This document shows positions 19,847-38,830 of a stretch of DNA of 64,000 nucleotides, one piece after another. The position numbers and the translations under genes are program-made. The stretch comes from an uncultured Aquimarina sp. GTDB lineage: Bacteria > Bacteroidota > Bacteroidia > Flavobacteriales > Flavobacteriaceae. Location of the stretch: contig NZ_CANMQT010000006.1 in the NCBI RefSeq assembly GCF_947500065.1, forward strand, positions 60,215 to 124,214, written 5' to 3'. Positions within the stretch are counted from its first letter, which is position 1, and every line of letters starts with the position of its first letter. The notes under the pieces were generated by a model. That model made no database searches and had not been told where the DNA came from. It saw only the letters and a list, made by a program, of their open reading frames with translations.

Positions 19847-19983
19847 AGCCATGTAAATGAACACGGTATAGAATTAATAATACTGATTCGGAAACTCCTG
19901 CAATTATGTAGTGAAATTTGTGTAGGTCTTGCTTTGGATTATTAATTCGTATTATTGTATAAGTAATATATTTCTTTTCTTAT

Positions 19984-22797
19984 TTGGGATTTAATAAAAT
20001 AATATCATTTTTATTAGTATTTATTTTCTGTACTTACACGGAAGCACAGGAAGTACCGCCTATTCAAAATTATTTACCTCAGGATTATAATGCAGAAAAT
20101 CAGAATTGGGCTATTTCTCAATCTCCAGAGAAATTAATTTATATAGCGAATAATAAAGGATTGTTGGAGTTTAATGGTTCAACATGGCAATTGTATCCAT
20201 CACCTAATGAATCTATTGTAAGATCGGTAAAGGTTGTAGAAGATAGAATTTACACAGGGTGCTATATGGACTTTGGTTATTGGCAGAAAGATATTTTAGG
20301 AGTTTTGCACTATACTTCGTTATCACAAAAAACAAAATTAAAACTAATTGAGGATGAGGAGTTTTGGAATATAATTAGTATCGATGACTTAATTGTTTTT
20401 CAATCTTTAAATCGAATATACATATATGATATTAAGGATGAATCGGTTAGTACCATAGATTCGGATAATACTATAACTAAAATATTTGAAGTTGATCGTA
20501 GTATCTATTTTCAGGTTGTTAATAAAGGGTTATTCAAAATTGAGTATGGTAAGGATGTTTTAATAAATGAAGATGAAGAGGTTAGGAATAGTGAAATCGT
20601 TAATGTTTTTAGCACTGATAAGGACTTTCTTATTTTAACAAGAAATAAAGGTTTTTATAGTTTAAAAAATAACAAGCTAACTAAATGGGGTGTAAATACA
20701 GAAAGGTTATTATCGGATATCAGTATTTATAATGCAATTCAACTGAAAGATAATAGTTTTGTTTTAGGAACAATTTCTCATGGATTGGTTTATCTAAATG
20801 ACGAAGGAAGTTTATTATATCAAGTTGATCAAAGTAAAGGATTGCTAAACAATACTATTTTGTCACTTTTTGAAGATATTGATAATAATATATGGTTAGG
20901 TCTTGATAATGGAATTAGTTATATAAACTTGAACTCGCCTTTTAGGATATATAGTGATAACCTTGGAGTTTTAGGAAGTGTTTATGCTTCTGCTATTCAT
21001 AATAATAATTTATATCTAGGAACAAATCAGGGTCTTTTTTATAAAAAAACACAAAGTAATGATGAGTTTAAGTTCATTAGAGGTACTCAAGGACAGGTTT
21101 GGTGTTTACAAAATATTGGCCAGACATTATTTTGTGGACACAATGCTGGGACTTTTATCGTCGATAATGATAAAGTAAAAAAAATATCTAATGTTCCGGG
21201 AACATGGAAGATTAGTGAGTTAAAAGATAAGTCTGATCTTTTGTTACAAGGAAATTATGATGGTCTTTATGTTTTTAAAAAAACAGATAACAATTGGCAA
21301 TTGAGAAATAAAATCAAAGGCTTTAATAATTCATCCCGTTATTTTGAAGTTGTTAGAGATGAGATATTTGTAAATCACGAATACAATGGTGTTTTTAGAA
21401 TAAAGGTTGATACTAGCTTCTTCAAAATAAAGAATGTTGCTATAGATACGTCTATAAAAGGTTCCAATTCAGGACTTATAACATACAATGATAATTTACT
21501 GTTTGCTTTTAAGAAAGGAGTTTTAAAATATAATGTTCCTAAAAAAGAGTTTATAAGAGATAGTCTTTTGAGCAAAATATATGTGGATAACGAATATGTT
21601 TCAGGTAAATTAATTGTAGATGAAACAAATAATAATTTATGGGTTTTTACACATTCTAATATAAGTTTTGTAACTCAGGGTATGCTTACAAATACACTAG
21701 CAGTTAGTAAAATACCTTTAACAAAGGCAGAAAGAAAAAGTGTCGCTGGATATGAAAGCGTGATGCATTTTGATGATAAAAATAAATATCTGTTTGGCAC
21801 AAGTTCTGGATATATAACTGTAGATATTGATAAACTGAATACTAAGGATTTTCAAGTTCAAATAGGCAACATTACCAATGGAAGTAATAAAATAAATAGA
21901 GCGGAAATACAACGTATAAATAAGAACTTGGAAGGCGATTTTAAGAGTAAGGATAATAATTTAAAAGTATCTTTTTATGCTCCAGAGTTTAATAAGTTTG
22001 GAAAACCAAAATTTCAATTTCAATTATTAGGAATTTATAACAATTGGAGTGATTGGTCTGAGAGCCCTATGGCATTTTTTGAAAATCTTCCTTTTGGTGA
22101 TTACACCTTTAATGTTAGATCCAGAATAGGAAACAAAGTCTCTAGTAATACTGCCAGTTATTCCTTTAAGATTCAAAAACCCTGGTATATCACTAATTTA
22201 ATGCTAGCAATTTATTTGTTAGCTACTATTTTGTTCTCCTTATTTATGCATATCACTTATAAACGATATTATAAGAAGAAACAAGAAGAATTAATTGAAA
22301 AGAATAAAAGTGAACTTAAGCTGACTAAGGTTCAAAATGAAAAGGAGATTATTAGGATTAAAAATGAACAACTAAAACAAGAATTTAAAGATAAGAGTAA
22401 AGAATTAGCTGCCTCAACAATAGACGTTGCGAAAAAGAATGAACTACTTACTCAAATTAAAAATCAACTTGCTAGAATTTCTGACGAAAACTCTGTTAAA
22501 CCTGTAATAAGTATTATTGATAAAAGCCTTGATCATAATGATAACTGGGAGGTTTTTAAAGAAGCATTTAATAATGTGGATAGAAAATTTTTGAAAAAGC
22601 TTAAAAAAACACATCCTGATTTATCTCCAAATGATTTAAAGCTCTGTGCATATTTGCGTCTTAATTTATCTTCTAAAGAAATAGCACCATTATTCAATAT
22701 ATCTGCTCGTAGTGTTGAGATTAAACGTTACAGACTTCGTAAAAAATTAAATCTTAAACACGAAGAAAACCTAGTAAACTATATTCTAGAGTTATAA
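19984..22797 (+). CDS. One-component PUL regulator: periplasmic beta-propeller/Y_Y_Y sensor, one TM helix, cytoplasmic LuxR-type HTH
   Basis: TTG start with signal-like N-terminus. Y_Y_Y-like FQFQLLGIYNNWSDWSE...GDYTFNVRS. TM helix WYITNLMLAIYLLATILFSLFMHI, then a coiled coil. LuxR/GerE HTH: LSPNDLKLCAYLRLNLSSKEIAPLFNISARSVEIKRYRLRKKL. No kinase or receiver domain. Confidence 0.85.
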   Translation: MGFNKIISFLLVFIFCTYTEAQEVPPIQNYLPQDYNAENQNWAISQSPEKLIYIANNKGLLEFNGSTWQLYPSPNESIVRSVKVVEDRIYTGCYMDFGYWQKDILGVLHYTSLSQKTKLKLIEDEEFWNIISIDDLIVFQSLNRIYIYDIKDESVSTIDSDNTITKIFEVDRSIYFQVVNKGLFKIEYGKDVLINEDEEVRNSEIVNVFSTDKDFLILTRNKGFYSLKNNKLTKWGVNTERLLSDISIYNAIQLKDNSFVLGTISHGLVYLNDEGSLLYQVDQSKGLLNNTILSLFEDIDNNIWLGLDNGISYINLNSPFRIYSDNLGVLGSVYASAIHNNNLYLGTNQGLFYKKTQSNDEFKFIRGTQGQVWCLQNIGQTLFCGHNAGTFIVDNDKVKKISNVPGTWKISELKDKSDLLLQGNYDGLYVFKKTDNNWQLRNKIKGFNNSSRYFEVVRDEIFVNHEYNGVFRIKVDTSFFKIKNVAIDTSIKGSNSGLITYNDNLLFAFKKGVLKYNVPKKEFIRDSLLSKIYVDNEYVSGKLIVDETNNNLWVFTHSNISFVTQGMLTNTLAVSKIPLTKAERKSVAGYESVMHFDDKNKYLFGTSSGYITVDIDKLNTKDFQVQIGNITNGSNKINRAEIQRINKNLEGDFKSKDNNLKVSFYAPEFNKFGKPKFQFQLLGIYNNWSDWSESPMAFFENLPFGDYTFNVRSRIGNKVSSNTASYSFKIQKPWYITNLMLAIYLLATILFSLFMHITYKRYYKKKQEELIEKNKSELKLTKVQNEKEIIRIKNEQLKQEFKDKSKELAASTIDVAKKNELLTQIKNQLARISDENSVKPVISIIDKSLDHNDNWEVFKEAFNNVDRKFLKKLKKTHPDLSPNDLKLCAYLRLNLSSKEIAPLFNISARSVEIKRYRLRKKLNLKHEENLVNYILEL

Positions 22798-22843
22798 TTA
22801 CCCATACAAAAAATTTTAGCACCTCAACATTACCCATACAAAA
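22797..22843 (+). repeat. Two perfect 15-nt direct repeats ATTACCCATACAAAA spaced 32 bp start-to-start
   Basis: Copies at 22797-22811 and 22829-22843, beginning at the last base of the regulator stop codon and upstream of the 23147 operon. Confidence 0.9.
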
Positions 22844-23146
22844 CAATGTTATGATTTTTTTTAACGGTTGTTTAGTGCTTTGCTGAAACCTGTTGGTAAC
22901 GGGTTTTAAGATGTTAATAATTTAAATAAATAACTCTTTTCTTGTGATGTATGTTTTTTGTTGAGGTATTTTTTAAGGATCTCGCATTTTTTTAAAATAA
23001 GTTTACTAAGTCTACAGACAGAAAACAAAACACAATCGATCACTTAATTTAATATTTAAAAGTCATGCTACATGATATTTGGGGCGAATACAGCAAAAGA
23101 AGTTTCTTCATATTTTTTACAGTCATTTTTAAAAACAATAGGTATA

Positions 23147-26100
23147 ATGAGAACTAATTTTCTACAATTAATAATACTCTTGTTTACGATAGTTGGGAGT
23201 TCACAGACTGATCAGGTATCCATAATAAATAATGATCAAGGGATAAAATTAGTAGTCAACGGAAAAGATTTTATGGTAAATGGAGTGAATTGGGATTATG
23301 TTCCTATTGGATCTACCATAACCGATCCTGGGATATGGGCAAAATCCGATGACATAATTAAAGCAGCAATAGATGGTGAAATGTCCTTGTTAAAGAACAT
23401 GGGAGTGAACGCTATTCGTACATATAATCTTAAACCCAAATGGGTTAAATACATTTATGAGAACTACGGTATTTACACCATGCTCAATATTACTTTTGGA
23501 GCATATGGACTTACCATAAACGGAGCTTGGGTACCGCAAACAGATTATGCAGATCCCGATACAAGAGAGGTCTTAATGAAAGAAGCCAGAGATATGGCTA
23601 ACACCTATAAAAATACACCAGGTTTATTGTTGTATATGATTGGTAACGAAAACAATTATCATTTATCATGGACAGGAGCAGAAACAGAAGATATTCCGAT
23701 TAATGATACAAGTTCTGGAATTAAACTTGCAGCTCGTGCTTTGTATAAAGCGTTTAACGATGCTGCAAAAGAGGTAAAAGGAATTGATCAATCGCATCCA
23801 GTAGCGATATGTAATGGGGATCTTTTATATGCGGATATAGTAAAAGAAGAATGTACAGATGTTGATATATATGGTACTAATATGTATCGTGGAATTTCCT
23901 TTGGAGATGCTTTCCAAAGAGTTAGAGACGAAATAGGTTTGCCAATTCTCTTTGCAGAATTTGGTGGAGATGCATTCAATGCAAGAGACAATCAAGAAGA
24001 TCAATATTCTCAGGCGTATTATAACTTGGGAAATTGGAAAGAAATTTATGAAAATGCAGCCGGACTAGGAAGAGCTGGAAACTCCATCGGTGGTTTCACT
24101 TTTCAATTTAGTGATGGTTGGTGGAAATATAAACAAACAGAAAACTTAGAAGTTCACGATAATGCTGCTTCTTGGTCTAATGGAGGATATAACCGAGATC
24201 AAGCAAAAGAAAGCGATAATAATATGAATGAAGAGTGGTTTGGTATTTGTGCCAAAGGACCAACTAATGAAAGAGGGCTTTATGAATTATATCCACGTGC
24301 CGCCTATTACGCTTTAAAAGAAGCTCATCTACTTAATCCATATGAAAAGGGAATGACACTTGATTTTATGGATAATTATTTTGATAATATCCAAATAATG
24401 GATGCGATGTTAAGGGCGCGCGGAGATAAAGCCGCCTTAGAAGCTAAAAGCGGTGCCAAAATAAGAATTAGTCAGTTAAGGGCGGAGTTCACTTCATTTA
24501 ATACAGGAGGAACTTTGCTTACTACAGATGATGTAGATCCCGATAGTAATATTTTTCCTAATAAAACAGGTTTTGATCATCTGCAATCATTTTATATAGG
24601 TGTAGAGGGAAAACCCACTGCAAATATGAGGGCTAATGTTAACTTTAATATTCTAGGTAATGTAGCCGACAATCCAATTGATCAATTGTTTTATGAAACA
24701 AGGGGACGCACCGTATCTGTAAATACAGATGAAGGAAATTTGGACCTTACCAATCTAAATACGGTACAATTATATAATGCAGAATTTGAGTGGAATACTA
24801 AAATAGCAGATATAAAAGGATTTTATAGAACTGGACACTACCATTGGGGATATGAAGGTGACTTTTTTGGATTGTACCCTGAAGCTAATTATGGACCAAA
24901 TTTAGATATTTATAATGGAGAATTTTCTGGAATTGAATTTTCTGGAAAAGCTGGTTTAAATGGTTTTAAGGCGGTTTACGGTCCTCAATTATGGTGGGGT
25001 GCTAATCCTGCTTTTTTAGTTAAATATAGAAAAAAAATAAAAGGAGTTGACGTTACTGGTATTTATCATGAAGATATTGATAATGCTAACGATATTGTAA
25101 CATCCATTGCGGTACCTGTTCCGAAAACAAGAAGAGTAACACTGCAGGCAGAAAAGGAATTCGGAAACTTTGATGTACAAGTAGGTGGTATTTGGGGAGG
25201 AGAACCACTAAATGGTAGAAAGTTCCAAATGGTTGAAGGTGGTCCGGGAAATTATGTAGTTTACAATGATGAGATTAACTCAGATGATAATTGGGGTGCT
25301 AAAGCAAAAGTCACATATTCAAAAGGTAAATTTAATTGGTATGCATTAGGCGCTACGATGGGCTTGGTTGCTAATGGCGGTACAGATCAAACACAAACAT
25401 TTACTGGTTGGAAGTTAAGAGATAATGGTAGCGGTAATCAAAACAGTTTCTTAACAGGTTTTTCTTATACATTGGGTGACTTTCAAATAGCACCAAACTT
25501 CCTGTGGCAAGAGCCTATTGTAGGAGCAATACCTAATGATGCAGGTGGTGCGGCTAGATTAAGAAATATTCAAGATGATCCTTTTGTCGTAAGAGCAAAT
25601 AGAAAAACAACAGCAGGAGAGTTACTAATTACATACGATCCAACTCCCGGATCATGGTTCTATGCTTGGGATAGTGATCGTAAAGAAGATGCTAAACTAG
25701 CTTTTAATTTTGGTTTTGTGTATCGTCATTTACCTACTACAATGGATGCCGCTATTGGATTTTTTGAAAATTCAAGGGTAGGAGCTCCGTTTTCAAATTC
25801 AGTTCCTGCTGAAGATTTATGGGAAGCAAGTTCGCGTATTGTATCTAAAGTAAGTCCAGAGTTAGCCTTAGTAGCAAATCTATATGCCGGTAATGGTCAG
25901 GCTAATGGTAGTGATGCTCGAGTAATCGATAGGATTGGAGGAGATATTCGTGTTATTTATAAAAAATGGAAACTACAACATACTTTTAAAATAGACGATT
26001 GGGGTCCTTATGATTATCACCGAGATTTCAATTTAACGTATCCAGTACAATTGATGTTAGATGTATCAACATCAATAGGGAAACCAGATTGGTTCCTCCT

Positions 26101-26284
26101 GCCTAGTACTAGAATAGGAGTTCGCGGCACATGGCGTTCATTAAACGAGTTTTCACCTCGTTACTCACCAACTGCAATACCACCAAATACTTTTCCTCCA
26201 GAACCAATACTAAACCCAGCGGGATTTGATAATGGCAGCGAATGGGAAATAAGAACATATGTACATATTAACATAGGAAAATAA
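23147..26284 (+). CDS. Clan GH-A (GH5/GH158-like) TIM-barrel domain fused to a ~600-aa putative outer-membrane beta-barrel domain; not SusC
   Basis: ATG at 23147 (MRTNFLQLIILLFTIVGSSQ signal peptide). N-terminal motifs: VNAIRTYN, MIGNENNYH (Asn-Glu), ILFAEFGGDAF (GH5-like nucleophile), FQFSDGWWKY. The C-terminal 600 aa are Gly/Asn/aromatic-rich with many amphipathic alternating strands: AFNFGFVYRH, DIRVIYKKWKLQHTFKID, VQLMLDVSTSIG, TRIGVRGTWRSL. No TonB box or plug. Confidence 0.55.
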   Translation: MRTNFLQLIILLFTIVGSSQTDQVSIINNDQGIKLVVNGKDFMVNGVNWDYVPIGSTITDPGIWAKSDDIIKAAIDGEMSLLKNMGVNAIRTYNLKPKWVKYIYENYGIYTMLNITFGAYGLTINGAWVPQTDYADPDTREVLMKEARDMANTYKNTPGLLLYMIGNENNYHLSWTGAETEDIPINDTSSGIKLAARALYKAFNDAAKEVKGIDQSHPVAICNGDLLYADIVKEECTDVDIYGTNMYRGISFGDAFQRVRDEIGLPILFAEFGGDAFNARDNQEDQYSQAYYNLGNWKEIYENAAGLGRAGNSIGGFTFQFSDGWWKYKQTENLEVHDNAASWSNGGYNRDQAKESDNNMNEEWFGICAKGPTNERGLYELYPRAAYYALKEAHLLNPYEKGMTLDFMDNYFDNIQIMDAMLRARGDKAALEAKSGAKIRISQLRAEFTSFNTGGTLLTTDDVDPDSNIFPNKTGFDHLQSFYIGVEGKPTANMRANVNFNILGNVADNPIDQLFYETRGRTVSVNTDEGNLDLTNLNTVQLYNAEFEWNTKIADIKGFYRTGHYHWGYEGDFFGLYPEANYGPNLDIYNGEFSGIEFSGKAGLNGFKAVYGPQLWWGANPAFLVKYRKKIKGVDVTGIYHEDIDNANDIVTSIAVPVPKTRRVTLQAEKEFGNFDVQVGGIWGGEPLNGRKFQMVEGGPGNYVVYNDEINSDDNWGAKAKVTYSKGKFNWYALGATMGLVANGGTDQTQTFTGWKLRDNGSGNQNSFLTGFSYTLGDFQIAPNFLWQEPIVGAIPNDAGGAARLRNIQDDPFVVRANRKTTAGELLITYDPTPGSWFYAWDSDRKEDAKLAFNFGFVYRHLPTTMDAAIGFFENSRVGAPFSNSVPAEDLWEASSRIVSKVSPELALVANLYAGNGQANGSDARVIDRIGGDIRVIYKKWKLQHTFKIDDWGPYDYHRDFNLTYPVQLMLDVSTSIGKPDWFLLPSTRIGVRGTWRSLNEFSPRYSPTAIPPNTFPPEPILNPAGFDNGSEWEIRTYVHINIGK

Positions 26285-26288
26285 TACA

Positions 26289-27701
26289 ATGAAAATGGAG
26301 TATAGAAAACAAATAAACTTAAAAACCATATTCTCTTTTATATTGGTTTTGATAATGCTATCTAGCTGTGAGAGAGAACTCTCAGATAATGCTGAATTTG
26401 CTACTTTTCCTACCACAGCAGAAATATTTATAGATACACCAGTTGGGCTTGGGAGCGATTTTTATTTTCCCTTTTTAGGCTCAAAACCAACAGCTTTTTC
26501 AGTTGATAATCAGGAAGGATACGAAAGTGATGCTTCGATGCGTGTTGATGTGCCTAATGCAGATGATGCAGAAGGTAATTACGCAGGAGCAATTTTTAGA
26601 GTCGATGGAGTGGGGCGTAACTTAACTGGATACGATGCACTTACTTTTTGGGCTAAAGCTTCACAAGGAGTCTCTATAGATGAAATGGGATTTGGCCAAG
26701 ACTTTGGTGAGAATAAGTTTCAAGTAACAAGAACTAGTATAAGTTTAGGGACTAATTGGGCTAAATATGTTATTCCAATACCTGATCCTTCTAAGCTTAC
26801 AGAAGAAAGAGGAATGCTTTGGTATTCTACCGGAACACAAAATACAGGTGGATTCGGATATACATTTTGGCTAGATGAGGTAAAGTTCGAAAGGTTAGGA
26901 ACTGTTGCACAATCGCAACCAGCAATACTTAATGGTGTTGCTGTAAATCAAGATGCTTTTATAGATGTTCCTGTTCAATTAACCGGACTTACGCAAACCT
27001 TTAACTTGGCATCAGGCAATAACCAAACAGTTGCTGCAGCCCCATCTTATTTTACATTCAGTTCTACAGATATTGATGTCGCTAATGTTAACGAATTAGG
27101 AGTGGTATCTGTGGTGGATACCGGTACTGCGACGATTACTGCAACTTTGGGTAATGTGGCTGCAACAGGTTCATTAGAACTTAATGTAACAGGACCTTTT
27201 GATTTTGCCCCAACACCTCCAATTAGAGACCCTGGAGACGTTGTTTCAGTATTTAGTGATGCTTATACCAGTGCACCGATAGAATTTTTTAATGGTTTCT
27301 TTACTCCAGATGGACAAACAACATTAGGAGGTTTTATTGATGTTAATGGAGATGGAGTAATTCGTTATTCAGAATTAAATTTTGTGGCACTTAAGACGGT
27401 AAATCGAGTAGATGCATCCGCTATGACTAATATTCATATAGATATAAAGGTAGAAGATGCACAGATAGATAATGGAGATTTTGTTAGAGTTCTATTACTT
27501 GCTCAAAATCCTGATGGCTCAGAAAATGAAGCTTCTATTGAGATTCCTAGTGCAGATTTGATAGCAGGGGATTGGATAAGTTTTGATCGTCCACTTTCAG
27601 ATTTTGCAGGGGTAAACCTCTCTAATTTGTCATTGTTCTTCTTTGTTTCGGATTCTACTATCTCTAACATTTTAGTGGATAATATCTATTTCTATAAATA
27701 A
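26289..27701 (+). CDS. Lipoprotein with central Big_2 Ig-like domain flanked by two CBM-like beta-sandwich modules (putative surface glycan-binding protein)
   Basis: Starts 5 nt after the previous stop. Lipobox LSSC followed by ERELSD. Big_2-like FTFSSTDIDVANVNELGVVSVVDTGTATITATLGNVAATGSLELNV. The modules end in YTFWLDEVKFE and NILVDNIYFYK. VVSVFSDAYT-type motif present. Confidence 0.6.
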   Translation: MKMEYRKQINLKTIFSFILVLIMLSSCERELSDNAEFATFPTTAEIFIDTPVGLGSDFYFPFLGSKPTAFSVDNQEGYESDASMRVDVPNADDAEGNYAGAIFRVDGVGRNLTGYDALTFWAKASQGVSIDEMGFGQDFGENKFQVTRTSISLGTNWAKYVIPIPDPSKLTEERGMLWYSTGTQNTGGFGYTFWLDEVKFERLGTVAQSQPAILNGVAVNQDAFIDVPVQLTGLTQTFNLASGNNQTVAAAPSYFTFSSTDIDVANVNELGVVSVVDTGTATITATLGNVAATGSLELNVTGPFDFAPTPPIRDPGDVVSVFSDAYTSAPIEFFNGFFTPDGQTTLGGFIDVNGDGVIRYSELNFVALKTVNRVDASAMTNIHIDIKVEDAQIDNGDFVRVLLLAQNPDGSENEASIEIPSADLIAGDWISFDRPLSDFAGVNLSNLSLFFFVSDSTISNILVDNIYFYK

Positions 27702-27720
27702 AAGCTAAAACTCTTAAAAG

Positions 27721-28560
27721 ATGAATATTATTAAAATATATAAAACAAGAATGAAAGCCATATTGTTTTCTGCTTTTCTACTTGTAATACTTTCTGCAGC
27801 CTCTAGCTGTGACACAGATGAAACTCAGGATGTCATTACTTTAAGAAATCTAGTGATGTCTGATGAGTTTGATATTGAAGGAGCGCCAAATTCTGCAATT
27901 TGGACCTACGATATTGGAAGAGGACCAAACGGAGACGGTTGGGGAAATCAAGAATTGCAATACTATACTGATCGTACTGAAAACGTAAAAGTAGAAAATG
28001 GTTTTCTATTGATTAATGCGAAAGAAGAAGATTTTGAAGGTGCTCAATATACTTCTGCACGACTTAAAACAGAAGGGTTGTTCGAACAGCAATATGGTCG
28101 CTTTGAAGCACGTATACGATTGCCTTATGGAAAAGGATTATGGCCGGCATTTTGGCTCTTAGGAAATGATTGCGAACAAAACATATGGCCGCTTTGTGGT
28201 GAAATAGATATTATGGAATACCTAGGTGATTCACCTAATGTAGTCTTTGGTAGTGCTCATGGGCCTGGTTATTCAGCAGGAGAAGCAGAAACTAAAGAGT
28301 ACACTTTGGAGGATGATCGATTTGATACCGGTTTTCACATTTTTGGTATAGAATGGGGGCCAGAGTATATCAACTATTATGTAGATGATGCATTGTACAA
28401 CCGGATCACACCAGATGATGTTGCTGGCGAATGGGTTTTTGATCATCCATTCTATATAATCATGAATGTTGCAGTTGGAGGTAGCTTTCCTGGGTCACCA
28501 AATGAAGAAACAGTTTTTCCGCAAACAATGATCGTAGACTACGTGCGAGTATATCAATAA
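27721..28560 (+). CDS. GH16 beta-1,3-glucanase (laminarinase), lipoprotein
   Basis: Lipobox ASSC followed by acidic DTDETQD. GH16 motifs: LVMSDEFD, LWPAFWLLG, GEIDIMEY, VDYVRVYQ. The start may instead be the Met at 27751. Confidence 0.9.
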   Translation: MNIIKIYKTRMKAILFSAFLLVILSAASSCDTDETQDVITLRNLVMSDEFDIEGAPNSAIWTYDIGRGPNGDGWGNQELQYYTDRTENVKVENGFLLINAKEEDFEGAQYTSARLKTEGLFEQQYGRFEARIRLPYGKGLWPAFWLLGNDCEQNIWPLCGEIDIMEYLGDSPNVVFGSAHGPGYSAGEAETKEYTLEDDRFDTGFHIFGIEWGPEYINYYVDDALYNRITPDDVAGEWVFDHPFYIIMNVAVGGSFPGSPNEETVFPQTMIVDYVRVYQ

Positions 28561-28592
28561 CAAAAGCAAACTAATTTAATTATTAAGAAATT

Positions 28593-30860
28593 ATGAAACT
28601 ATTTATCAAAAGAACCAAAATAATTTTGCTTTTAGTAGCAGCTGTTACCTTTTTTGGTTGTGAGGATGATGACGCTGATTTACCAAAAGTTGTTGCAAGT
28701 TTTGCACACAACATAAATGAAGATACCGGAAGAGTATCCTTTTTAAACCTTTCTGAAAACGCGGATAGTTACACTTGGGATTTCGGTGATGGTACGACAT
28801 CTACAGAAATTAATCCAATAAGAACTTTTCCAACGGGTAATTATACGGTTGTACTTACTGCAGAAAATGCGGCAGGAGCCGAAAGTACTTTTGAAGATGA
28901 AATTTTTATAAACATACCTATTCCCGTTTCGTTTCCTATTAATTTTGACGAAACTAATGTAAATTATGATGTCAGTATATTTAATGGTGCAGCATTTACA
29001 ATTGTAGAAAATCCAGATCCAACTGGAGCAAACACAAGTACATCTAATGTAGGTCAGATTACCAATAGCGGAGCTGCTTTTGAAGGTTTTTTCTTTAATT
29101 TAGGAGATCCGTTAGATTTAACAGAACAAAAATCTGTAAAAGTTCTTTTCTGGTCAGAGACTCCAATAGATATTTTACTTAAACTAGAAGAAGGAACTGG
29201 CCCAGATGTTGAAACTACCACAAGTCAAAGAGGAACAGGTTGGGAAGAAATTTACTTTACATTCGATTCATCAAATGCATTTTCAAGATTTACGATGTTT
29301 GTTGATGGACCAGGTACGACTGCAGGGACATTCTATATAGATGATATTTCTCAAATTAATACTGCAGACATTCCTTGTACGGATACGTTGTTAGAAATTC
29401 CAATAGATTTTGACTGTAATGGAATTGATTACGCTACTAAGATTGTTGGTAATGTGTCCTTTGCTATTGTAGATAATCCAGAATTATCGGGTATCAATAG
29501 TGAACCAACTATGGTTGGACAAATCACGAATGTAGGTGCTAACTTCGAAAATGCTTTCTTTAATCTAGATACCGCTATTGATTTTTCCGCAGATAAAGGG
29601 GTTAAAATGAAAATATTCTCTAATCAGGCATTACCAGTTTTATTAAAATTTGAAGATGGTACAGAAGCACCTGTTGAGAATGCACAAAACCATGGTGGTT
29701 CTGGCTGGGAAGAATTAACGTTCGTACTTAACTCATCAGCTTCTTACAACGATATGGTGATTTTTGTAGATGGTCCAGGTACCGCAACGGGTATCTTTTA
29801 TCTGGATGATATTGAGCAGGTTTCCGTAATGGTTGCTGGTCCTTGTATTCCAGAGACTAGTCAATCACTAGATGCATCCAATTTTGATTTAACATTCCAA
29901 ACGGATCCAACTGCTAGTATAGCCTCGTTTGATGCAGGTTTATCTTGGGTTGACAATCCAGATTTTGATAATGATGTAAATAAATCATGTAAAGTTGGAC
30001 AAATAGATCGATCTGGCGCAGCATTATTTGCTAATAATCAAATTGATTTTGATACTAAATTTGATTTTAATGCGAATTCAGGGTTTAAACTAAAAGTATG
30101 GTCTCCTACTGCAGGTACAAATGTTTTAGTAAAACTAGAAGATAAGACTAACGGTGGAATTAATGTAGAAGTAGGCGCTGTTACTAGTGTAGCTGGCGGT
30201 TGGGAAGAATTGACTTTTAATTTTGCAAGTGGTGAAAGTGGAAAATATGATAAGATTATATTGTTTTTTGAGTTGAATACGAATACAACAGAAACCTATT
30301 ATATTGATGATTTTAGGCTATACATTTCTGGTGGAACAGGTGGTGGCGGATGTGATACTACCTTTGTTGCAGCCACATCATTACCATTAGATTTTGAAGG
30401 TTGCGAAACGTTTCTTTCTGATGTTAATTTTGGAGCAGGTCTTACTTCAGAAGTTGTAGCAAATCCTTTTCAAACAGGTATTAATACTTCTCCTTTTGTT
30501 TTAAAAGTAGATAAACCTACTGGTTCCGAATTTTTTGCCGGAGTTCAAAATACGTTCGATAATTTTGATTTGACTACAACAATGACTTTTAAAGTTAAAG
30601 TCTATTCTACCAAAGCAAATGTAGTAATGCGTTTTGAATTAGCTGTTTTACCTAATGATGGAAGTATTGGTAATCCAGCTCCAGTATTTGTAACAATAGC
30701 GAATGCAAATGAATGGACAGAAGTCGAATTTACTTTTATCAATTTACCAGCATCACCAACAACATATAATCATTTAGTCATAAAACCAGATAATGATCAG
30801 ACTGATAGTGCAATAACATCGGGTGGTACATATTATTTTGATGATATAAGACTTGAGTAG
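28593..30860 (+). CDS. Lipoprotein with PKD domain and four tandem CBM-like modules (putative surface beta-glucan-binding protein)
   Basis: Lipobox FFGC followed by EDDDADL. PKD motif YTWDFGDGTTSTEINPIRTFPTGNYTVVLTAENAAG. Four ~150-aa modules each carry NP...G.N.S..VGQI.N.GA.FE and end in FYIDDISQ, FYLDDIEQ, YYIDDFRL and YYFDDIRLE. Confidence 0.75.
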   Translation: MKLFIKRTKIILLLVAAVTFFGCEDDDADLPKVVASFAHNINEDTGRVSFLNLSENADSYTWDFGDGTTSTEINPIRTFPTGNYTVVLTAENAAGAESTFEDEIFINIPIPVSFPINFDETNVNYDVSIFNGAAFTIVENPDPTGANTSTSNVGQITNSGAAFEGFFFNLGDPLDLTEQKSVKVLFWSETPIDILLKLEEGTGPDVETTTSQRGTGWEEIYFTFDSSNAFSRFTMFVDGPGTTAGTFYIDDISQINTADIPCTDTLLEIPIDFDCNGIDYATKIVGNVSFAIVDNPELSGINSEPTMVGQITNVGANFENAFFNLDTAIDFSADKGVKMKIFSNQALPVLLKFEDGTEAPVENAQNHGGSGWEELTFVLNSSASYNDMVIFVDGPGTATGIFYLDDIEQVSVMVAGPCIPETSQSLDASNFDLTFQTDPTASIASFDAGLSWVDNPDFDNDVNKSCKVGQIDRSGAALFANNQIDFDTKFDFNANSGFKLKVWSPTAGTNVLVKLEDKTNGGINVEVGAVTSVAGGWEELTFNFASGESGKYDKIILFFELNTNTTETYYIDDFRLYISGGTGGGGCDTTFVAATSLPLDFEGCETFLSDVNFGAGLTSEVVANPFQTGINTSPFVLKVDKPTGSEFFAGVQNTFDNFDLTTTMTFKVKVYSTKANVVMRFELAVLPNDGSIGNPAPVFVTIANANEWTEVEFTFINLPASPTTYNHLVIKPDNDQTDSAITSGGTYYFDDIRLE

Positions 30861-30898
30861 TTTACACTCGAATAATTATTTGAATTAGCATTAAGTAT

Positions 30899-30930
30899 AA
30901 GAGGTTGAAATAAATATTCAACCTCTTTTG
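30899..30930 (+). terminator. Intra-locus terminator between the PKD/CBM lipoprotein gene and the phosphorylase gene
   Basis: 11-bp perfect stem AAGAGGTTGAA/TTCAACCTCTT with a 7-nt loop, then TTG. Confidence 0.7.
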
Positions 30931-30985
30931 AACCTGAAAAATGAATGCTTTAAGAAGCAACTTTTTAAATTGAAGTACATAAAAG

Positions 30986-33900
30986 ATGATAAAGGACTCA
31001 GTATTAACACCTGGAAAAATAGAGGATAAAGAGGTAAGACTAGAACACATTATTATAGACAATGAGACATTTTATATGATTTCTAATAGTGATGTAATGC
31101 GTCCCTTTTTTATGAGTATCGTTAGTGATTCTAATCATTGGATGTTTATATCCAGTAATGGAGGATTGTCTGCTGGCAGAAAAGATTCGAATAATGCAAT
31201 TTTCCCATATTATACAGATGATAAGATTACAGAATCATATGATAATACAGGTAGTAAATCCATTTTCAGAATAAAACAAGAAGGTAAACTATTAATATGG
31301 GAGCCGTTTTCTGAACGTTACTCAGGGACATACCAATACTCTAGAAATATTTATAAAAATGCATATGGAAATAAAATTTTATTTGAAGAAATAAATCATG
31401 ATGCAGGACTGACTTATACATATATGTGGAGTTCTAGTAATGAGTATGGTTTTGTCAGAAAAAGTACATTAATAAATAACTCGAATAAATCTGTAAATGT
31501 TGAAATATTAGATGGTTTACAAAATATCTTACCATACGGAGTTAATACCGACTTACAGGCAATAAGAAGTAACTTGGTAGATGCTTATAAAAGAAGTCAA
31601 CTGGAAGAAGTAAGCGGATTAGGCATGTATGCACTTAGTGCAATTATTGTAGACCGTGCAGAACCAAGTGAGGCTTTAAAAGCAAATATAGTTTGGTCTA
31701 AAGGACTAGAAAACCCTAAACACCTATTATCATCATTACAGTTAAATAACTATAGGAATGGTAATGAGATATACAAAGAAATTGATGTAAAAGCTGAAAA
31801 AGGCGCGTATTTTGTCAATTGTAATATTACTTTACAAGCTTCAGAAAGTAAAGAATGGGTAATGGTTACTAATGTTAATCAAGGACCTTCTCAAGTAGTT
31901 GAAATTTCCGAAATAATTAAAAATGAAAAAGATTTAATTCAGAAAGTTACTGATGATATAGAATTAGGAACACAACGTTTGATCAATTTGGTGTCAGCTT
32001 CAGATGGACTTCAATTAACGGCTGATAAGAGACTAAATGCCAGGCATTATTCAAATACATTGTTTAATATAATGCGAGGTGGTATTTTCGATGCGAATTA
32101 CACGATAGAAAAATGGGATTTCATTAACTACCTAGCATCAGCTAATAGAGAAGTACATCTTAATAATGAAATATTATTAAGGAGTTTCTCGGATTCCTTT
32201 ACACTTTTTGAACTTAGAGAAGAAGCACATAAAAATGAGGATAAAGACTTTAGGAGATTAGCATTAGAGTATATGCCGCTTAAGTTTAGTCGACGTCATG
32301 GGGATCCCAGTCGCCCTTGGAACATATTTTCGATAAATACTAGGGATGAATTAGATGGTTCCAAAATATTAGATTATGAAGGTAACTGGAGAGATATTTT
32401 TCAGAATTGGGAGGCGCTGGCGTATTCTTATCCAGAGTTTGTGGAAAGCATGATTTACAAGTTCTTGAATGCAAGTACTTTTGACGGTTATAATCCATAT
32501 AGGATTACAAAAGGAGGAATAGATTGGGAGGTCATAGAAGAGCACGATCCGTGGTCATATATTGGTTATTGGGGCGATCATCAAATTATTTACTTATTAA
32601 AATTTTTAGAATTTTTCCAAGATCATTACCCAATCAGACTTCAGAATTTTCTTAGTAATGATACGTTTGTTTATGCGAACGTTCCTTATAAAATCAAGCC
32701 TTATGAAGACCTCTTAAAGAATCCAAAAGATACTATAGAGTTTGATTACAATCTTGATAAAAAAGTGCAAAAAAAACGTGTTGAGCTTGGCGCAGATGGG
32801 GTATTGTTAAGAGATCAAAATGATAGTATTCATAAGGTGAATTTTATTGAAAAAATATTAGCTACAACTTTAGCGAAGTTGTCTAATTTTATTCCTGAAG
32901 TGGGTATTTGGTTAAATACGCAACGCCCAGAATGGAATGATGCTAATAATGCTTTAGTAGGTAATGGAGTTTCCATGGTAACACTATATTATTTAAGGCG
33001 ATTCTTGTCTTTTTTCAAGAAATTATTATCTAATTCAAAAATCGAAAAATTAGAAATCTCCGAAGAGCTCATAGTTTTTTTTACTAAGGTGTTAAATACT
33101 TTGGATGATTACCAATATCTACTTTCCGGAAAAATTACTGATACATCCCGAAAACTCATTGTAGACAACCTAGGTCAAGCAGCTAGCAAATACAGGTTAA
33201 GGATTTATGAACAAGAGTTTTCTGGTCGAAAAAACAGTGTATCAATGAATGATCTTAATCGTTTTATAGACTTAAGCCTTCTGTATATTGAACACTCCAT
33301 AGATGCTAATAAAAGACAGGATAATTTGTATCATGCTTACAATTTGATGACTGTTAAAAACGATGATGAAATCTCAGTTTCATATTTAAGCGAAATGTTA
33401 GAAGGTCAGGTTGCTGTGCTAAGTTCAGGGTATTTATCATCCAGAGAAAGTCTTCAGCTTTTAGATGGTTTGAAGAGCAGTAAACTTTTTAGAGAAGATC
33501 AATACAGTTATTTATTATATCCGAATAAAGAATTACCAAAGTTTACGGAAAAGAATACCATTCCTAAAGAGGATGTGGAAAATTCAGGATTGCTAAAGCA
33601 ACTTCTTATAGATAATAATACACAAATTATCGAAAAAGACATAAACGGGAATTATCATTTTAATGGAAGTTTTAATAATGCAGAGAGTGTAAAACAAGAA
33701 TTAGAAAATCTCTCTACCCAAGGATACAATAATTTAGTTGAAAAAGATAGAGATGTAGTCTTACAGACTTTTGAAAAAGTATTTAATCATAAAGCATTTA
33801 CAGGACGTTCCGGAACATTTTATGGCTATGAAGGATTAGGTTCTATTTATTGGCATATGGTTTCAAAATTGTTATTGGCAGTAGAAGAATGTTGTTTAAA

Positions 33901-34450
33901 AGCTATAGGTGTTCAAGAATCAGATGAAGTCGTAGGGAGGCTACTAGAGCACTATTACGAAATTAATGAAGGTATTGGAGTTCACAAATCTCCAGAATTG
34001 TATGGAGCTTTTCCAACAGATCCTTATTCGCATACACCAGCTGGTAAAGGAGCGCAACAACCAGGAATGACTGGGCAAGTAAAAGAAGATATTCTGAGCC
34101 GTATAGGAGAACTAGGTGTAACAGTTAACAATGGCGAGTTGCAATTTTGTCCGAGTCTGTTAAGGATAGCAGAGTTTTTGAAAAATCCAAAGATGTTCGA
34201 GTACGTGGATGTAAATCAACACAAAAAACAATTACAGTTATATAGACATGAATTAGCTTTTACATATTGTCAAGTACCTGTTGTGTATTCATTGTCAGGA
34301 GAAAATAGCATTGAAATAGCATACCGTGATAGCGTGATCACTTCACATATTGGTTTAAAATTAGATAGCTCTATTAGCCAAAAGCTATTTAAGAGGACTG
34401 GAGAGATTGAAAACTTAAAAGTAAACATCGAGAAAACTATTTTAAAATAA
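30986..34450 (+). CDS. Cytoplasmic GH94-fold glycoside phosphorylase, probably GH149/GH161-type beta-1,3-glucan (laminari-oligosaccharide) phosphorylase
   Basis: No signal peptide. Ordered motifs resemble GH94-clan phosphorylases: RRHGDPSRPWN; NWRDIFQNWE (cf. RD..QD); GYWGDHQIIYL; RPEWNDANNAL (cf. catalytic DWNDxxN); YGYEGLGSIYWHM; QQPGMTGQVKE (cf. phosphate-binding TG). The size and the GH17/GH30/MFS context fit bacterial GH149. Confidence 0.6.
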   Translation: MIKDSVLTPGKIEDKEVRLEHIIIDNETFYMISNSDVMRPFFMSIVSDSNHWMFISSNGGLSAGRKDSNNAIFPYYTDDKITESYDNTGSKSIFRIKQEGKLLIWEPFSERYSGTYQYSRNIYKNAYGNKILFEEINHDAGLTYTYMWSSSNEYGFVRKSTLINNSNKSVNVEILDGLQNILPYGVNTDLQAIRSNLVDAYKRSQLEEVSGLGMYALSAIIVDRAEPSEALKANIVWSKGLENPKHLLSSLQLNNYRNGNEIYKEIDVKAEKGAYFVNCNITLQASESKEWVMVTNVNQGPSQVVEISEIIKNEKDLIQKVTDDIELGTQRLINLVSASDGLQLTADKRLNARHYSNTLFNIMRGGIFDANYTIEKWDFINYLASANREVHLNNEILLRSFSDSFTLFELREEAHKNEDKDFRRLALEYMPLKFSRRHGDPSRPWNIFSINTRDELDGSKILDYEGNWRDIFQNWEALAYSYPEFVESMIYKFLNASTFDGYNPYRITKGGIDWEVIEEHDPWSYIGYWGDHQIIYLLKFLEFFQDHYPIRLQNFLSNDTFVYANVPYKIKPYEDLLKNPKDTIEFDYNLDKKVQKKRVELGADGVLLRDQNDSIHKVNFIEKILATTLAKLSNFIPEVGIWLNTQRPEWNDANNALVGNGVSMVTLYYLRRFLSFFKKLLSNSKIEKLEISEELIVFFTKVLNTLDDYQYLLSGKITDTSRKLIVDNLGQAASKYRLRIYEQEFSGRKNSVSMNDLNRFIDLSLLYIEHSIDANKRQDNLYHAYNLMTVKNDDEISVSYLSEMLEGQVAVLSSGYLSSRESLQLLDGLKSSKLFREDQYSYLLYPNKELPKFTEKNTIPKEDVENSGLLKQLLIDNNTQIIEKDINGNYHFNGSFNNAESVKQELENLSTQGYNNLVEKDRDVVLQTFEKVFNHKAFTGRSGTFYGYEGLGSIYWHMVSKLLLAVEECCLKAIGVQESDEVVGRLLEHYYEINEGIGVHKSPELYGAFPTDPYSHTPAGKGAQQPGMTGQVKEDILSRIGELGVTVNNGELQFCPSLLRIAEFLKNPKMFEYVDVNQHKKQLQLYRHELAFTYCQVPVVYSLSGENSIEIAYRDSVITSHIGLKLDSSISQKLFKRTGEIENLKVNIEKTILK

Positions 34451-34456
34451 AAACAA

Positions 34457-35743
34457 ATGACACAAAGACATAACATAATACTCACATTATTATTTATAGT
34501 ACTTATGCTGTCTTGTAATCAAGAACAAAAATCTAAAAAATCTATGCACCCCCAAAATAGCATCATCGCAAAAGACATTTTAGGCAACCCAAATTATCTT
34601 GCAATATCTTATGGTGGTTACCGTAAATCATCTAGAGAGTTTCAACCTAGCATTGCACAGTTAAAAGAAGATATGAAAATGCTGAAGGCTATGAATATTA
34701 AAATCTTAAGAACTTATAATGTTCAATTAGCTCAAGCTTCTAATTTATTAAAAGCTATAAATCAGCTAAAGATGGAAGATGAAACTTTCGAAATGTATGT
34801 AATGCTCGGAGCTTGGATTGATTGTAAGAATGCTTGGACTGATAAAGAACCAGATCATAATGAGGAAAGTCTACAAAATGAAAGCGAAATAAATAGAGCT
34901 GTAGCATTGGCAAATCAATACCCAGATATTGTAAAAGTAATCGCTGTTGGTAATGAATCCATGATAAGATGGGCAACCAGCTATTATGTACAACCAAGTG
35001 TAATATTGAAATGGGTTAATTATTTACAGAATTTAAAGAAAGAGGGTAAACTTTCTAAAGATCTATGGATTACTTCTTCTGATGATTTTGCATCCTGGGG
35101 AGGAGGAGAGGAAAGTTATCAGATTAAAGATTTAGAAGACTTAATCAAAGCAGTAGATTATGTGTCCATGCATACCTATCCATATCATAATACTCATTAT
35201 AATCCTCAGTTTTGGGGGATAGATAATACGGAATATAATCTCTCTTCAGAAGAAAAAATAGAAGCCGCGATGCAAAGAGCATTAAAATTTGCTCAAAAGC
35301 AATATGAAGCAGTTTCGGTTTATGTTGAAAGTTTAGGAGTAAAAAAGCCGATTCACATAGGTGAGACAGGTTGGGCTACTGTCTCTAATGGACACTATGG
35401 ACCTAATGGCTCTAAAGCTACTGATGAATTTAAAGAAGCTTTGTATTATAAATATATCAGAGAATGGACCAATAAAGAGGGTATTTCTTGTTTTTATTTT
35501 GAAGCCTTTGATGAACCCTGGAAAGATGCTCATAATCAGAAAGGTTCAGAAAACCATTTTGGATTAATAACGGTTGATGGTAAAGCAAAATATGCACTTT
35601 GGGATATGGTAGATGAAGATATGTTTAAAGGATTGACTAGAGGCGGTAATCCAATTACTAAAACGTACGATGGTGATAAAAGTGAAATGATGAAAAGTGT
35701 AGAGTTACCCGTTTCTAAAGAAGTATTGACAGTTAGTTTTTAA
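34457..35743 (+). CDS. GH17 beta-1,3-glucanase, lipoprotein
   Basis: Lipobox MLSC followed by non-acidic NQEQKSKK. GH17 motifs: IAVGNESM (acid/base), IHIGETGWATVS (nucleophile), FYFEAFDEPWK. Confidence 0.85.
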   Translation: MTQRHNIILTLLFIVLMLSCNQEQKSKKSMHPQNSIIAKDILGNPNYLAISYGGYRKSSREFQPSIAQLKEDMKMLKAMNIKILRTYNVQLAQASNLLKAINQLKMEDETFEMYVMLGAWIDCKNAWTDKEPDHNEESLQNESEINRAVALANQYPDIVKVIAVGNESMIRWATSYYVQPSVILKWVNYLQNLKKEGKLSKDLWITSSDDFASWGGGEESYQIKDLEDLIKAVDYVSMHTYPYHNTHYNPQFWGIDNTEYNLSSEEKIEAAMQRALKFAQKQYEAVSVYVESLGVKKPIHIGETGWATVSNGHYGPNGSKATDEFKEALYYKYIREWTNKEGISCFYFEAFDEPWKDAHNQKGSENHFGLITVDGKAKYALWDMVDEDMFKGLTRGGNPITKTYDGDKSEMMKSVELPVSKEVLTVSF

Positions 35744-35746
35744 GAG

Positions 35747-37234: not shown

Positions 37235-37238
37235 AACT

Positions 37239-38804: not shown

Positions 38805-38830
38805 TAATATTAATTAATCATAGCTACCTT

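Follow-up and report, generated by a model that had tools for sequence, protein, structure and literature searches.

Two adjacent genes in a 64,000-nucleotide stretch of DNA from an uncultured Aquimarina sp. (contig NZ_CANMQT010000006.1, positions 60,215 to 124,214; hereafter "the window") encode an unusual outer-membrane module. The first, gene 1 (23147..26284, plus strand, 1045 residues), is a fusion of an enzyme similar to glycoside hydrolase (GH) family 158 with a large predicted outer-membrane beta-barrel. The second, gene 2 (26289..27701, plus strand, 470 residues), is a lipoprotein resembling surface glycan-binding proteins (SGBPs) of the SGBP-B type. Both stand near the head of a cluster laid out like a laminarin polysaccharide utilization locus (PUL), directly after the regulator, where a SusC-like TonB-dependent transporter and a SusD-like lipoprotein would be expected. 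What, then, could such a pair be doing there? The explanation that we favour, with a probability of roughly 0.55, is that gene 1 forms a TonB-independent channel for beta-1,3-glucan which is covalently coupled to a laminarinase and assisted by a glycan-binding lipoprotein, as fold and genomic context together suggest. Such a protein would represent both a new family and a new enzyme-fusion architecture among substrate-specific outer-membrane channels and PUL outer-membrane modules.

Gene 1 begins at 23147, where the N-termini of homologues align, rather than at the first ATG of its open reading frame (ORF) at 23072. The coordinates given by the initial annotation were right, and the motifs that it had singled out (VNAIRTYN, MIGNENNYH, ILFAEFGGDAF, FQFSDGWWKY and five strand-like segments) are all present. 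The protein opens with a signal peptide of the SPI type (23147..23206), which lacks a lipobox cysteine; Gln20 is invariant in the flavobacterial alignment and the cleavage site is a putative one. It is followed by a clan GH-A (beta/alpha)8 domain spanning residues ~22-400 (23210..24346), supported by Pfam, by an AlphaFold2 (AF2) model with beta/alpha alternation across residues 24-395, by Foldseek and by a profile search of the PDB. The best Foldseek match of the N-terminal half in the PDB is BuGH158 (6pal, E 7e-11), with the LaGH157 laminarinase next. Sequence searches of the PDB reach GH158 at E 0.2 with a single sequence and 0.005 with a profile, at ~15% identity, and the profile search returns GH2 and GH158 side by side at E 1e-3 to 5e-3. 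Asn167-Glu168 (23645..23650), the predicted acid/base pair, and Glu271 (23957..23959, in the motif FAEFG), the predicted nucleophile, do not vary in any of the 55 flavobacterial homologues aligned, nor in any of the 17 fused homologues from Bacteroidota, Gammaproteobacteria and Desulfuromonadales. Conservation of the two glutamates, which had been proposed as a check, thus holds across both phyla. HMMER alignments place N167-E168 on GNE (Glu143) and E271 on TEFG (Glu229) of GH158(Pro), whose catalytic residues are Glu143 and Glu229 (PMC13195107); the catalytic motif of BuGH158 is N136/E137/E220, and Asn167-Glu168 matches its N136/E137 (PMC7157763). Because these residues are invariant and aligned with the catalytic glutamates of GH158, residues ~22-400 are read from their sequence as a catalytically intact GH158-like clan GH-A enzyme, with predicted activity. 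The assignment to clan GH-A made in the initial annotation is therefore upheld, while its GH5-like label gives way to a GH158-like one on the Foldseek and PDB profile results.

The likeness to GH158 (BuGH158, 6pal; GH158(Pro), 9oro) extends over the fold, the NE acid/base pair, the xEFG nucleophile and the laminarin-locus context. It ends with the low identity and the sequence E-values of 0.005-0.2, with the absence of a lipoprotein signal from gene 1, and with what lies beyond the catalytic domain. The structural papers on GH158 describe a TIM barrel and an Ig-like domain only (PMC7157763; PMC13195107). In the AF2 model of gene 1 the C-terminal eight-stranded Ig-like domain of GH158 is not found, and the TIM barrel leads instead into a short hairpin, helices and the large barrel of ~608 residues. 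The common database name of the protein, "GH2", overstates the case, because NCBIfam beta-galactosidase models score only 19-24 bits on gene 1, against cut-offs of 999-1284. The sole Pfam match is Glyco_hydro_2_C (residues 34-281, E 2e-8, 34 bits), and the multi-domain architecture of GH2 enzymes, with sugar-binding and Ig-like domains ahead of the TIM barrel, is not seen in gene 1, which is matched by the TIM-barrel model alone. A helical linker (residues ~401-437, 24347..24457, with AF2 helices at 405-434) connects the two halves. It varies between phyla in the alignment and is absent from homologues that consist of the barrel alone.

The C-terminal half is a predicted beta-barrel of ~608 residues (24458..26281), with ~24 membrane strands and an extra hairpin at residues 692-709 (AF2, Foldseek, covariation). 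Pfam at E<=10 gives no match for the C-terminal 646 residues or for six stand-alone barrels, NCBIfam gives none on the gene 1 barrel or on the stand-alone barrel P0324, and the PDB profile search matches the TIM barrel only, leaving residues ~438-1045 unmatched. In the AF2 model, built on 55 homologues, this half is made of long antiparallel hairpins, whose strand blocks reach a predicted local confidence (pLDDT) of 80-90. All eight of its 2-3-residue turns sit between an even strand and the next odd one, a parity which in the model is that expected for periplasmic turns with long extracellular loops. Foldseek finds BtuB, PfeA, FepA, Cir, OprC and LptD at E 1e-8 to 1e-7; the matched TonB-dependent transporters have 22-strand barrels and LptD a 26-strand one. 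Covariation was examined by mean-field direct coupling analysis (DCA) of 327 barrel sequences (effective number, Neff, 146), with a ladder score on strand pairs. The top couplings are hairpin contacts of predicted neighbouring strands, and of the 25 strand pairs adjacent in sequence, 22 score above the 95th percentile of the non-adjacent ones. S11-S14, the strongest of the non-adjacent pairs, corresponds to the extra hairpin at 692-709 and leaves a 24-strand next-neighbour meander. This topology is of the transmembrane-barrel type, unlike that of stacked Ig or sandwich domains, and gene 1 combines it with a Sec signal peptide, short turns on one side and long loops on the other. The classical C-terminal signal of outer-membrane proteins, Y/F-x-F, ends the proteobacterial fusions and the stand-alone barrels; in the flavobacterial forms, that of the window included, the last residues are Y-x-H-I-N-I-G-K.

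It is very unlikely that these ~600 residues form instead a soluble beta-rich region (sandwiches, a solenoid or a propeller) devoted to carbohydrate binding or oligomerisation. The moderate confidence of the model (predicted TM score, pTM, 0.48), a first-to-last strand pairing that covariation does not detect and a C-terminus, INIGK, that does not close on an aromatic residue would all be compatible with such a region. Against it, Foldseek returns membrane barrels only for the C-terminal half, the 24 strands follow one another strictly as next neighbours, which those of Greek-key sandwiches do not, the parity with which short connections give way to long ones is consistent, and homologues carry the canonical outer-membrane C-terminal signal and stand alone behind a signal peptide of their own. 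The outer-membrane barrel proposed at the outset is thus what AF2, Foldseek and DCA return, rather than a series of Ig or sandwich domains.

The possibility that this barrel is a degenerate SusC was considered and rejected: compared by hhalign with 15 SusC proteins of sister PULs, the barrel profile reaches a probability of 0.3%. CarboxypepD_reg (PF13715), Plug (PF07715) and TonB_dep_Rec are absent from gene 1 in a Pfam scan which does detect CarboxypepD_reg and Plug in the SusC of related loci. No TonB box is seen either, as the mature N-terminus of gene 1 runs directly into the TIM barrel, and in stand-alone barrels strand 1 comes immediately after the signal peptide. These absences, already noticed in the initial annotation, are the reason for proposing that passage would be TonB-independent. 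A search of 1.84 billion representatives yields 505 clusters matching the barrel, 130 of them at E<=1e-30, and these include proteins of 565-615 residues that are made of a signal peptide and the barrel only. The C-terminal domain is hence an autonomous unit, occurring also as stand-alone barrels, and it belongs to an unannotated family with a generic fold resemblance alone to the barrels of TonB-dependent transporters. Its most conserved segment is an aromatic-rich loop (GFYRTGHYHWGYEGDFFGLYPEANYGPNLDIYNG, residues 558-591, 24818..24919), whose dense invariant columns are kept into the proteobacterial and stand-alone barrels. This loop may act as a constriction or as a binding loop.

The start codon of gene 2 (26289) lies 4 nt after the gene 1 stop codon (26282-26284). 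Its product has a modular architecture, which begins with a lipoprotein signal peptide (26289..26369) ending at the lipidated and invariant Cys27 (LSSC). This is followed by a conserved unstructured tether (residues 28-57, 26370..26459, pLDDT <50), a first beta-sandwich resembling carbohydrate-binding modules (CBMs; residues ~58-203, 26460..26897), a Big_2 Ig-like domain (residues ~204-305, 26898..27203, with the Pfam Big_2 match on 245-291) and a second CBM-like beta-sandwich (residues ~306-470, 27204..27698). The AF2 model (51 homologues) has a pLDDT of 84.6, and both sandwiches are recognised by Foldseek, which for gene 2 returns tandem CBM22, BtSGBP-B (7kwb), BuSGBP-B (7k44), CBM11, CBM30 and a Big_2-CBM56 protein. 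CBM11 is a binder of mixed-linkage beta-glucan. The Pfam models of SusD (SusD_RagB and SusD-like_3) are unmatched in gene 2, and the AF2 model is all-beta rather than the helical TPR fold. Judged by this model, gene 2 is an SGBP-B-like protein and not a SusD, where "SGBP-B-like" designates a functional class and not one homologous family. What places it there is its lipoprotein signal, Ig-like spacer, CBM-like sandwiches and location in a PUL. The earlier picture of a lipidated all-beta protein with Big_2 between two CBM-like modules thus stands up to AF2 and Foldseek.

Gene 2, a lipoprotein of a beta-glucan PUL, is built like the SGBPs found in the SGBP-B or SusE/F position (BtSGBP-B 7kwb, BuSGBP-B 7k44, Cf-SGBP; bioRxiv 10.1101/2023.09.07.556657), which are likewise lipoproteins with an Ig-like spacer and CBM-like sandwiches. 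It differs in having no sequence-level match to the solved SGBPs, in following gene 1 rather than a SusD, and in its unusually conserved tether. R29, D49 and G55 do not vary within this tether, which lies between the likewise invariant C27 and P61, and conservation reaches at least 90% in many of its columns. Such conservation is unusual for a linker, and yet the segment is predicted to be disordered; residues 28-57 may therefore be a docking segment that folds upon a partner. The residues after the lipidated cysteine, C-E-R-E-L-S-D, are acidic, and this would fit, if only suggestively, the exposure of gene 2 at the cell surface. A database entry 100% identical to gene 2 comes from uncultured Aquimarina sp.

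Homologues of gene 1 number more than 5000 at 67-91% identity across flavobacterial genera, the best (91%) coming from Aquimarina, and relatives occur in at least 571 species when one genome per species is scanned. The loci were surveyed for the best 80 of these at least 571 species-level relatives. All belong to Bacteroidota except one contig labelled Acidimicrobiia (L059), and they come mainly from Flavobacteriaceae, Saprospiraceae, Lewinellaceae and Chitinophagales, freshwater Flavobacterium included. A gene 2 homologue directly follows gene 1 in 80/80 loci and is itself followed by GH16 in nearly all, the conserved order in Bacteroidota being gene 1, gene 2, GH16, (PKD), GH149, GH17, GH30 and a major facilitator superfamily (MFS) transporter. 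The architecture is real, ancient and widespread, and the number of homologues and the constancy of the gene pair put its features well outside chance. Two distant homologues extend it at the N-terminus: in P0126 (1351 residues) a normal GH-barrel is preceded by a Pro-rich linker and by an additional GH-A-like domain, which is degenerate, and P0249 (1218 residues) bears a CBM4_9. Apart from this CBM4_9 addition and this duplicated GH-A-like domain, no other enzyme family was found fused to the barrel.

The upstream context was counted in the 59 loci with at least 6.5 kb of upstream sequence. In about 36 of them the regulator lies directly upstream of gene 1 with no SusCD between, as in the window, and in 15 a canonical SusC-SusD-PKD/CBM triplet is inserted, whose SusC carries CarbopepD_reg_2 and Plug. 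Because these 15 loci hold both, the pair is not a simple substitute for SusCD: gene 1 and gene 2 are a separate constant module, SusCD is the variable part, and the window locus is the SusCD-less form. The earlier proposal that the pair occupies the SusC/SusD slot beside laminarinases therefore has to be corrected, since in these 15 relatives SusCD is present as well. A large barrel gene followed by a lipoprotein gene at the head of an operon with a PUL regulator, a similar barrel size and Foldseek matches to TonB-dependent transporters are what the pair has in common with SusC/SusD. The lack of an N-terminal extension, plug and TonB box, the negligible hhalign probability, an all-beta CBM-Ig-CBM partner, an enzyme borne by the barrel and the coexistence with true SusCD set it apart.

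The proteobacterial relatives are the most informative about the barrel itself. There, the neighbours of fused forms are GH16 and/or GH30, a regulator of the GntR type and a gene of phosphorylase size (GH149, verified by NCBIfam in L007 and weak in L008), with ATP-binding cassette (ABC) importer, ROK-kinase or Entner-Doudoroff genes nearby. In 4/4 loci the fusion is followed by a lipoprotein of ~210 residues (L007 13003-13629, L008 13117-13764, L091 11099-11749, L092 11142-11789), in which two cysteines are conserved and repeats (FYLWATALA...KAYRSVLDNF) look helical. Neither Pfam nor NCBIfam matches it, and it is absent beside stand-alone barrels; kinship with gene 2 was considered and rejected, no similarity being found. 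The stand-alone barrels, of 575-600 residues and with a signal peptide of their own, sit in gammaproteobacterial clusters, with GH16 adjacent in 4/5 loci. Those for which upstream sequence is available (L004, L005 and L093) have, besides GH16, a LacI regulator and an oligosaccharide ABC importer of the SBP_bac_5 type, to which L005 adds GH1. In L094 the immediate neighbours of the barrel are a glucokinase gene on one side and an SBP_bac_5 ABC importer on the other. Within +/-8-10 kb of the stand-alone barrels in the five loci, no TonB-dependent transporter was found. The barrel family in Proteobacteria tracks laminarinase clusters without a TonB-dependent transporter. One further observation concerns L008 (Desulfuromonadales), where the opposite strand carries, a few kb downstream, OmpA-family, ExbD (two copies) and MotA/ExbB genes (17293-22609); this neighbourhood is probably coincidental, yet it bears on the question of TonB independence.

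That the barrel alone recurs beside laminarinases and oligosaccharide importers, in organisms which must somehow get oligosaccharides through the outer membrane, is the strongest argument for considering it a channel for beta-1,3-gluco-oligosaccharides. Hydrolysis and binding would in turn be coupled to the pore, because an intact laminarinase is fused to it and a lipoprotein partner goes with the fusion: a downstream lipoprotein accompanies 84/84 fused forms and 0/5 stand-alone barrels. The favoured mechanism would then proceed as follows. A BguR-type regulator, acting at an operator ~300 nt upstream of gene 1, would turn the unit on. Laminarin would be bound and cleaved by GH16/GH81 enzymes, secreted or at the surface, and by CBM lipoproteins, and the fragments would cross the outer membrane through the gene 1 barrel. 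The fused enzyme would cleave them at the channel, most likely docked at its periplasmic exit, and such periplasmic cleavage would keep the gradient steep and stop back-diffusion. Gene 2 would bind glucan and cooperate with the enzyme half. Finally, GH17 and GH30 would trim the products, the MFS transporter would import them, and the GH149 phosphorylase and the cytoplasmic GH17 would complete the breakdown.

An enzyme facing the periplasm is the sub-model that we prefer. An N-terminal extension of an even-stranded outer-membrane barrel starts in the periplasm, and inter-domain covariation weakly favours this side as well. DCA across the two domains used 269 full-length sequences (Neff 115, 537 columns). 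Among the top 50 GH-barrel pairs, 21 fall at periplasmic turns or strand ends and 13 on the extracellular side, for an expected periplasmic fraction of 0.34 (binomial p 9e-4, the pairs not being independent and the variable columns having been preselected). A per-column Mann-Whitney test also points to the periplasmic side (p 9e-4), and the columns concerned are not more coupled within the barrel generally.

Several observations weigh against the favoured explanation, whether on its channel, on its sidedness or on both. The inter-domain pairs all lie outside the overall top 60 at that Neff. Confidence in the AF2 model of gene 1 is no more than moderate (mean pLDDT 66.6, pTM 0.48, loops <50), and the first and last strands have a DCA score of 0.19 against a background of 0.27. 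This pairing thus gives no covariation signal, and closure of the barrel is suggested instead by the closed barrels that Foldseek matches. A plug-less 24-strand barrel would also have to be sealed in some way. Our guess is that conserved loops fold into the lumen, and the aromatic loop 558-591 and other conserved loops are the candidates. Where a canonical SusCD stands between the regulator and gene 1, as in the 15 loci above, the pair is not needed as the sole import route and could have another role.

The remaining objections are those that speak for a different arrangement, namely a surface-displayed laminarinase. Here the barrel would anchor or translocate the GH158-like domain, which together with gene 2 would form a covalent mini-"utilisome", and import would use the same barrel from outside, or a SusCD in the PUL or elsewhere in the genome. 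This alternative is the main rival, possible though less probable than the favoured channel. Type Va autotransporters have the same order of signal peptide, passenger, helical linker and C-terminal barrel. The GH158 enzymes that have been characterised are surface enzymes, and BuGH158 is predicted to be an endo-laminarinase of the cell surface (PMC7157763). Gene 2 is similar to CBMs and to the SGBP-B proteins of the surface (Foldseek) and has acidic residues after its cysteine, a lipoprotein partner is found with every GH-bearing form and with none of the stand-alone barrels, the variant P0249 carries an N-terminal CBM4_9, and SusCD is available alongside in 15/59 loci. Display at the surface accounts poorly, however, for the size of the barrel, whose ~24 strands are about double the 12 that anchoring or autotransport requires, for passenger-less barrels in laminarin clusters beside ABC importers, and for the periplasmic lean of the covariation. 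No autotransporter Pfam model matches either: PF03797, the Autotransporter beta-domain, gives no match in the C-terminal half even at E<=10. In addition, the proteobacterial partner lipoprotein would be expected on the periplasmic leaflet, given what is known of the Lol pathway. In comparison with type Va proteins such as EstA, gene 1 shares the signal peptide, N-terminal globular enzyme, helical linker and C-terminal barrel, and departs from their 12-strand Pfam Autotransporter domain in having ~24 strands and a barrel that occurs also without a passenger.

A more specific version of the favoured channel, and a rather doubtful one, is an energy-free alternative to TonB. A glucan chain would thread the plug-less ~24-strand barrel and be cut at its periplasmic exit by the laminarinase, docked with its catalytic face up, so that hydrolysis, possibly processive, would make import one-way. 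Some GH158 enzymes are processive.

Known outer-membrane systems offer partial parallels to the proposed channel. The sugar-specific porins (LamB, ScrY, ChiP, CymA, KdgM/NanC), which pass oligosaccharides too large for general porins, resemble it in the proposed TonB-independent passage of oligosaccharides and in their place beside hydrolases and importers. They differ in having 12-18 strands, no enzyme, no sequence or family match and no lipoprotein partner of this kind. LptD/LptE provides the example of a very large barrel with an N-terminal periplasmic domain and a dedicated lipoprotein partner, through which a polymer is threaded, and BcsC, PgaA and AlgE likewise combine an N-terminal periplasmic domain with a barrel threaded by a polymer. 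All of these are biosynthetic exporters, whereas gene 1 lies in a catabolic context, has no homology to them and would carry a glycoside hydrolase as its N-terminal domain. By analogy with BcsC/BcsZ, PgaA/PgaB and AlgE/AlgL, and with LptD-type and other large barrels among the Foldseek matches, gene 1 might be imagined as an exporter of a beta-1,3-glucan exopolysaccharide, trimmed by its periplasmic hydrolase. This is the least likely of the explanations considered, and it was rejected on gene context: no glycosyltransferase or synthase was seen in the loci examined, the neighbours are all catabolic (GH16, GH17, GH30, GH149, MFS/ABC importers, Entner-Doudoroff, glucokinase), and the regulator is of a type required for laminarin growth.

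The regulator in question (19984..22797, plus strand) is a one-component protein that spans the membrane, with a Reg_prop/Y_Y_Y sensor and a GerE helix-turn-helix domain (Pfam), which is the architecture of BguR. In Formosa agariphila BguR is required for growth on laminarin, and the whole laminarin PUL is induced 70-110-fold on this substrate in a BguR-dependent manner (bioRxiv 10.64898/2026.01.10.698779). Among the components of that PUL are SusCD, a "GH158" and a hypothetical protein bearing CBM103-like modules (bioRxiv 10.64898/2026.01.10.698779), the last two of which are probably homologues of gene 1 and gene 2. In the window, two direct copies of TACCCATACAA lie after the regulator (22799-22809 and 22831-22841, plus strand), ~310-350 nt upstream of gene 1. 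They are its only two matches in 64 kb, where 0.13 would be expected, and form a candidate operator that may bind the BguR-type regulator. The motif TACC[CT]ATACA occurs within 120 nt after the regulator stop codon in 31/60 related loci. It is also found ~260-330 nt upstream of gene 1 in five SusCD-containing loci, these five sites being among only 21 other matches in 1.55 Mb. Because the motif is found again before gene 1 also in loci where SusCD lies in between, gene 1 seems to head its own regulated unit.

The whole plus-strand cluster (19984-39715) consists of the regulator, gene 1, gene 2, GH16, PKD/CBM4_9, GH149, GH17, GH30, MFS_2 and GH17, a laminarin-PUL-like layout just as first described, in which the previously unnamed gene for 1154 residues proves to be GH149. 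Downstream of gene 2, all on the plus strand, come a GH16 lipoprotein (27721..28560; CDTDE) and a PKD/CBM4_9 lipoprotein (28593..30860; CEDDDAD), both identified by Pfam and by their N-termini. They are followed by the GH149 beta-1,3-glucan phosphorylase (30986..34450; NCBIfam NF058639, 1787 bits), without a signal peptide, by GH17 and GH30 lipoproteins (34457..37234; Pfam, N-termini) that probably face the periplasm, and by an MFS_2 sugar transporter with a second GH17 devoid of a signal peptide (37218..39715; Pfam, N-termini). Acidic residues after the cysteine are present in gene 2 and in the GH16 and PKD lipoproteins, a sequence feature which suggests that these three are surface-exposed; the first GH17 and the GH30 lipoproteins lack them. 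Neither a Pfam scan of the listed ORFs nor tblastn with the SusC/SusD proteins of related loci finds a SusC or SusD anywhere in the 64-kb window. In Winogradskyella ludwigii (L009 19257-21614) the MFS transporter and the signal-less GH17 form one ORF of 785 residues, the fused counterparts of window 37218-38804 and 38831-39715; this is an inner-membrane transporter-hydrolase fusion in the same pathway.

Upstream of the cluster lies a set of secreted glycanases (85-15363): on the plus strand, two small GH16 genes, a GH16-PKD-Big_2-CBM6 protein of 1475 residues and a GH81-CBM6 protein of 1160 residues, and on the minus strand a GH18 chitinase of 1560 residues. The 1475-, 1160- and 1560-residue proteins carry C-terminal sorting domains of the type IX secretion system. 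These enzymes suggest extensive extracellular cleavage of beta-1,3-glucan supplying the locus. Immediately before the regulator lies an ORF of 1321 residues (15810-19775), in which Pfam recognises only an FRG1/fascin-like (beta-trefoil) region near the N-terminus. Directly downstream of the locus there are three consecutive genes for ~550 residues each (40528-42177, 42598-44235 and 44649-46322), with signal peptides and without a Pfam match, which look like paralogues by size and N-terminal similarity. Further on, a flexirubin-like pigment or lipid cluster (46399-63416) contains an FAD halogenase-like protein, an aromatic amino-acid ammonia-lyase, several ketoacyl synthases, a short-chain reductase, BtrH_N/DUF4872 and a lipid A-type acyltransferase.

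How much of this has been described before? The initial annotation did not recognise the architecture as a described system. This holds for the barrel half, which has gone unremarked, and less so for the gene, since laminarin-PUL papers list a "GH2" or "GH158" at this position (PMC13188888; bioRxiv 10.64898/2026.01.10.698779; PMC12175321). A study of Muricauda lutaonensis gives the same order (LuxR, "GH2", GH16, GH149, PKD, GH17, GH30, MFS, GH17) and treats "GH2" as a beta-glycosidase, mentioning neither a barrel nor the absence of SusCD. Papers on Maribacter, Woeseiaceae and BguR also list GH2 or GH158 in such clusters; the F. agariphila and Woeseiaceae "GH158" and the Muricauda "GH2" are candidate counterparts of gene 1. 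No description of a laminarin porin or of a GH-barrel fusion was found within the literature searched. Thus the gene and the locus type are known, while the barrel half and its implications are undescribed in that literature.

At a minimum, thousands of annotations as "GH2 TIM-barrel domain-containing protein" cover less than half of the protein they name, and a module conserved in hundreds of species has a barrel half that neither Pfam nor NCBIfam annotates. The consequences may reach further. Laminarin is among the largest carbon fluxes in the ocean, and its uptake by bacteria has been traced almost entirely through SusC/SusD genes and proteins. If this module does take glucan fragments through the outer membrane without TonB, many laminarin loci, that of the window included, escape any PUL definition in which SusCD is required, models of "selfish" uptake need a second route, and the fusion of an enzyme to a channel would constitute a new design principle for outer-membrane transport. 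The MFS-GH17 fusion of the related Winogradskyella locus, at the inner membrane, points the same way. If, moreover, the chain is cut as it threads the barrel, an enzyme-coupled translocon would be present in at least 571 species of several phyla and would have been missed by every survey that uses SusC/SusD as markers.

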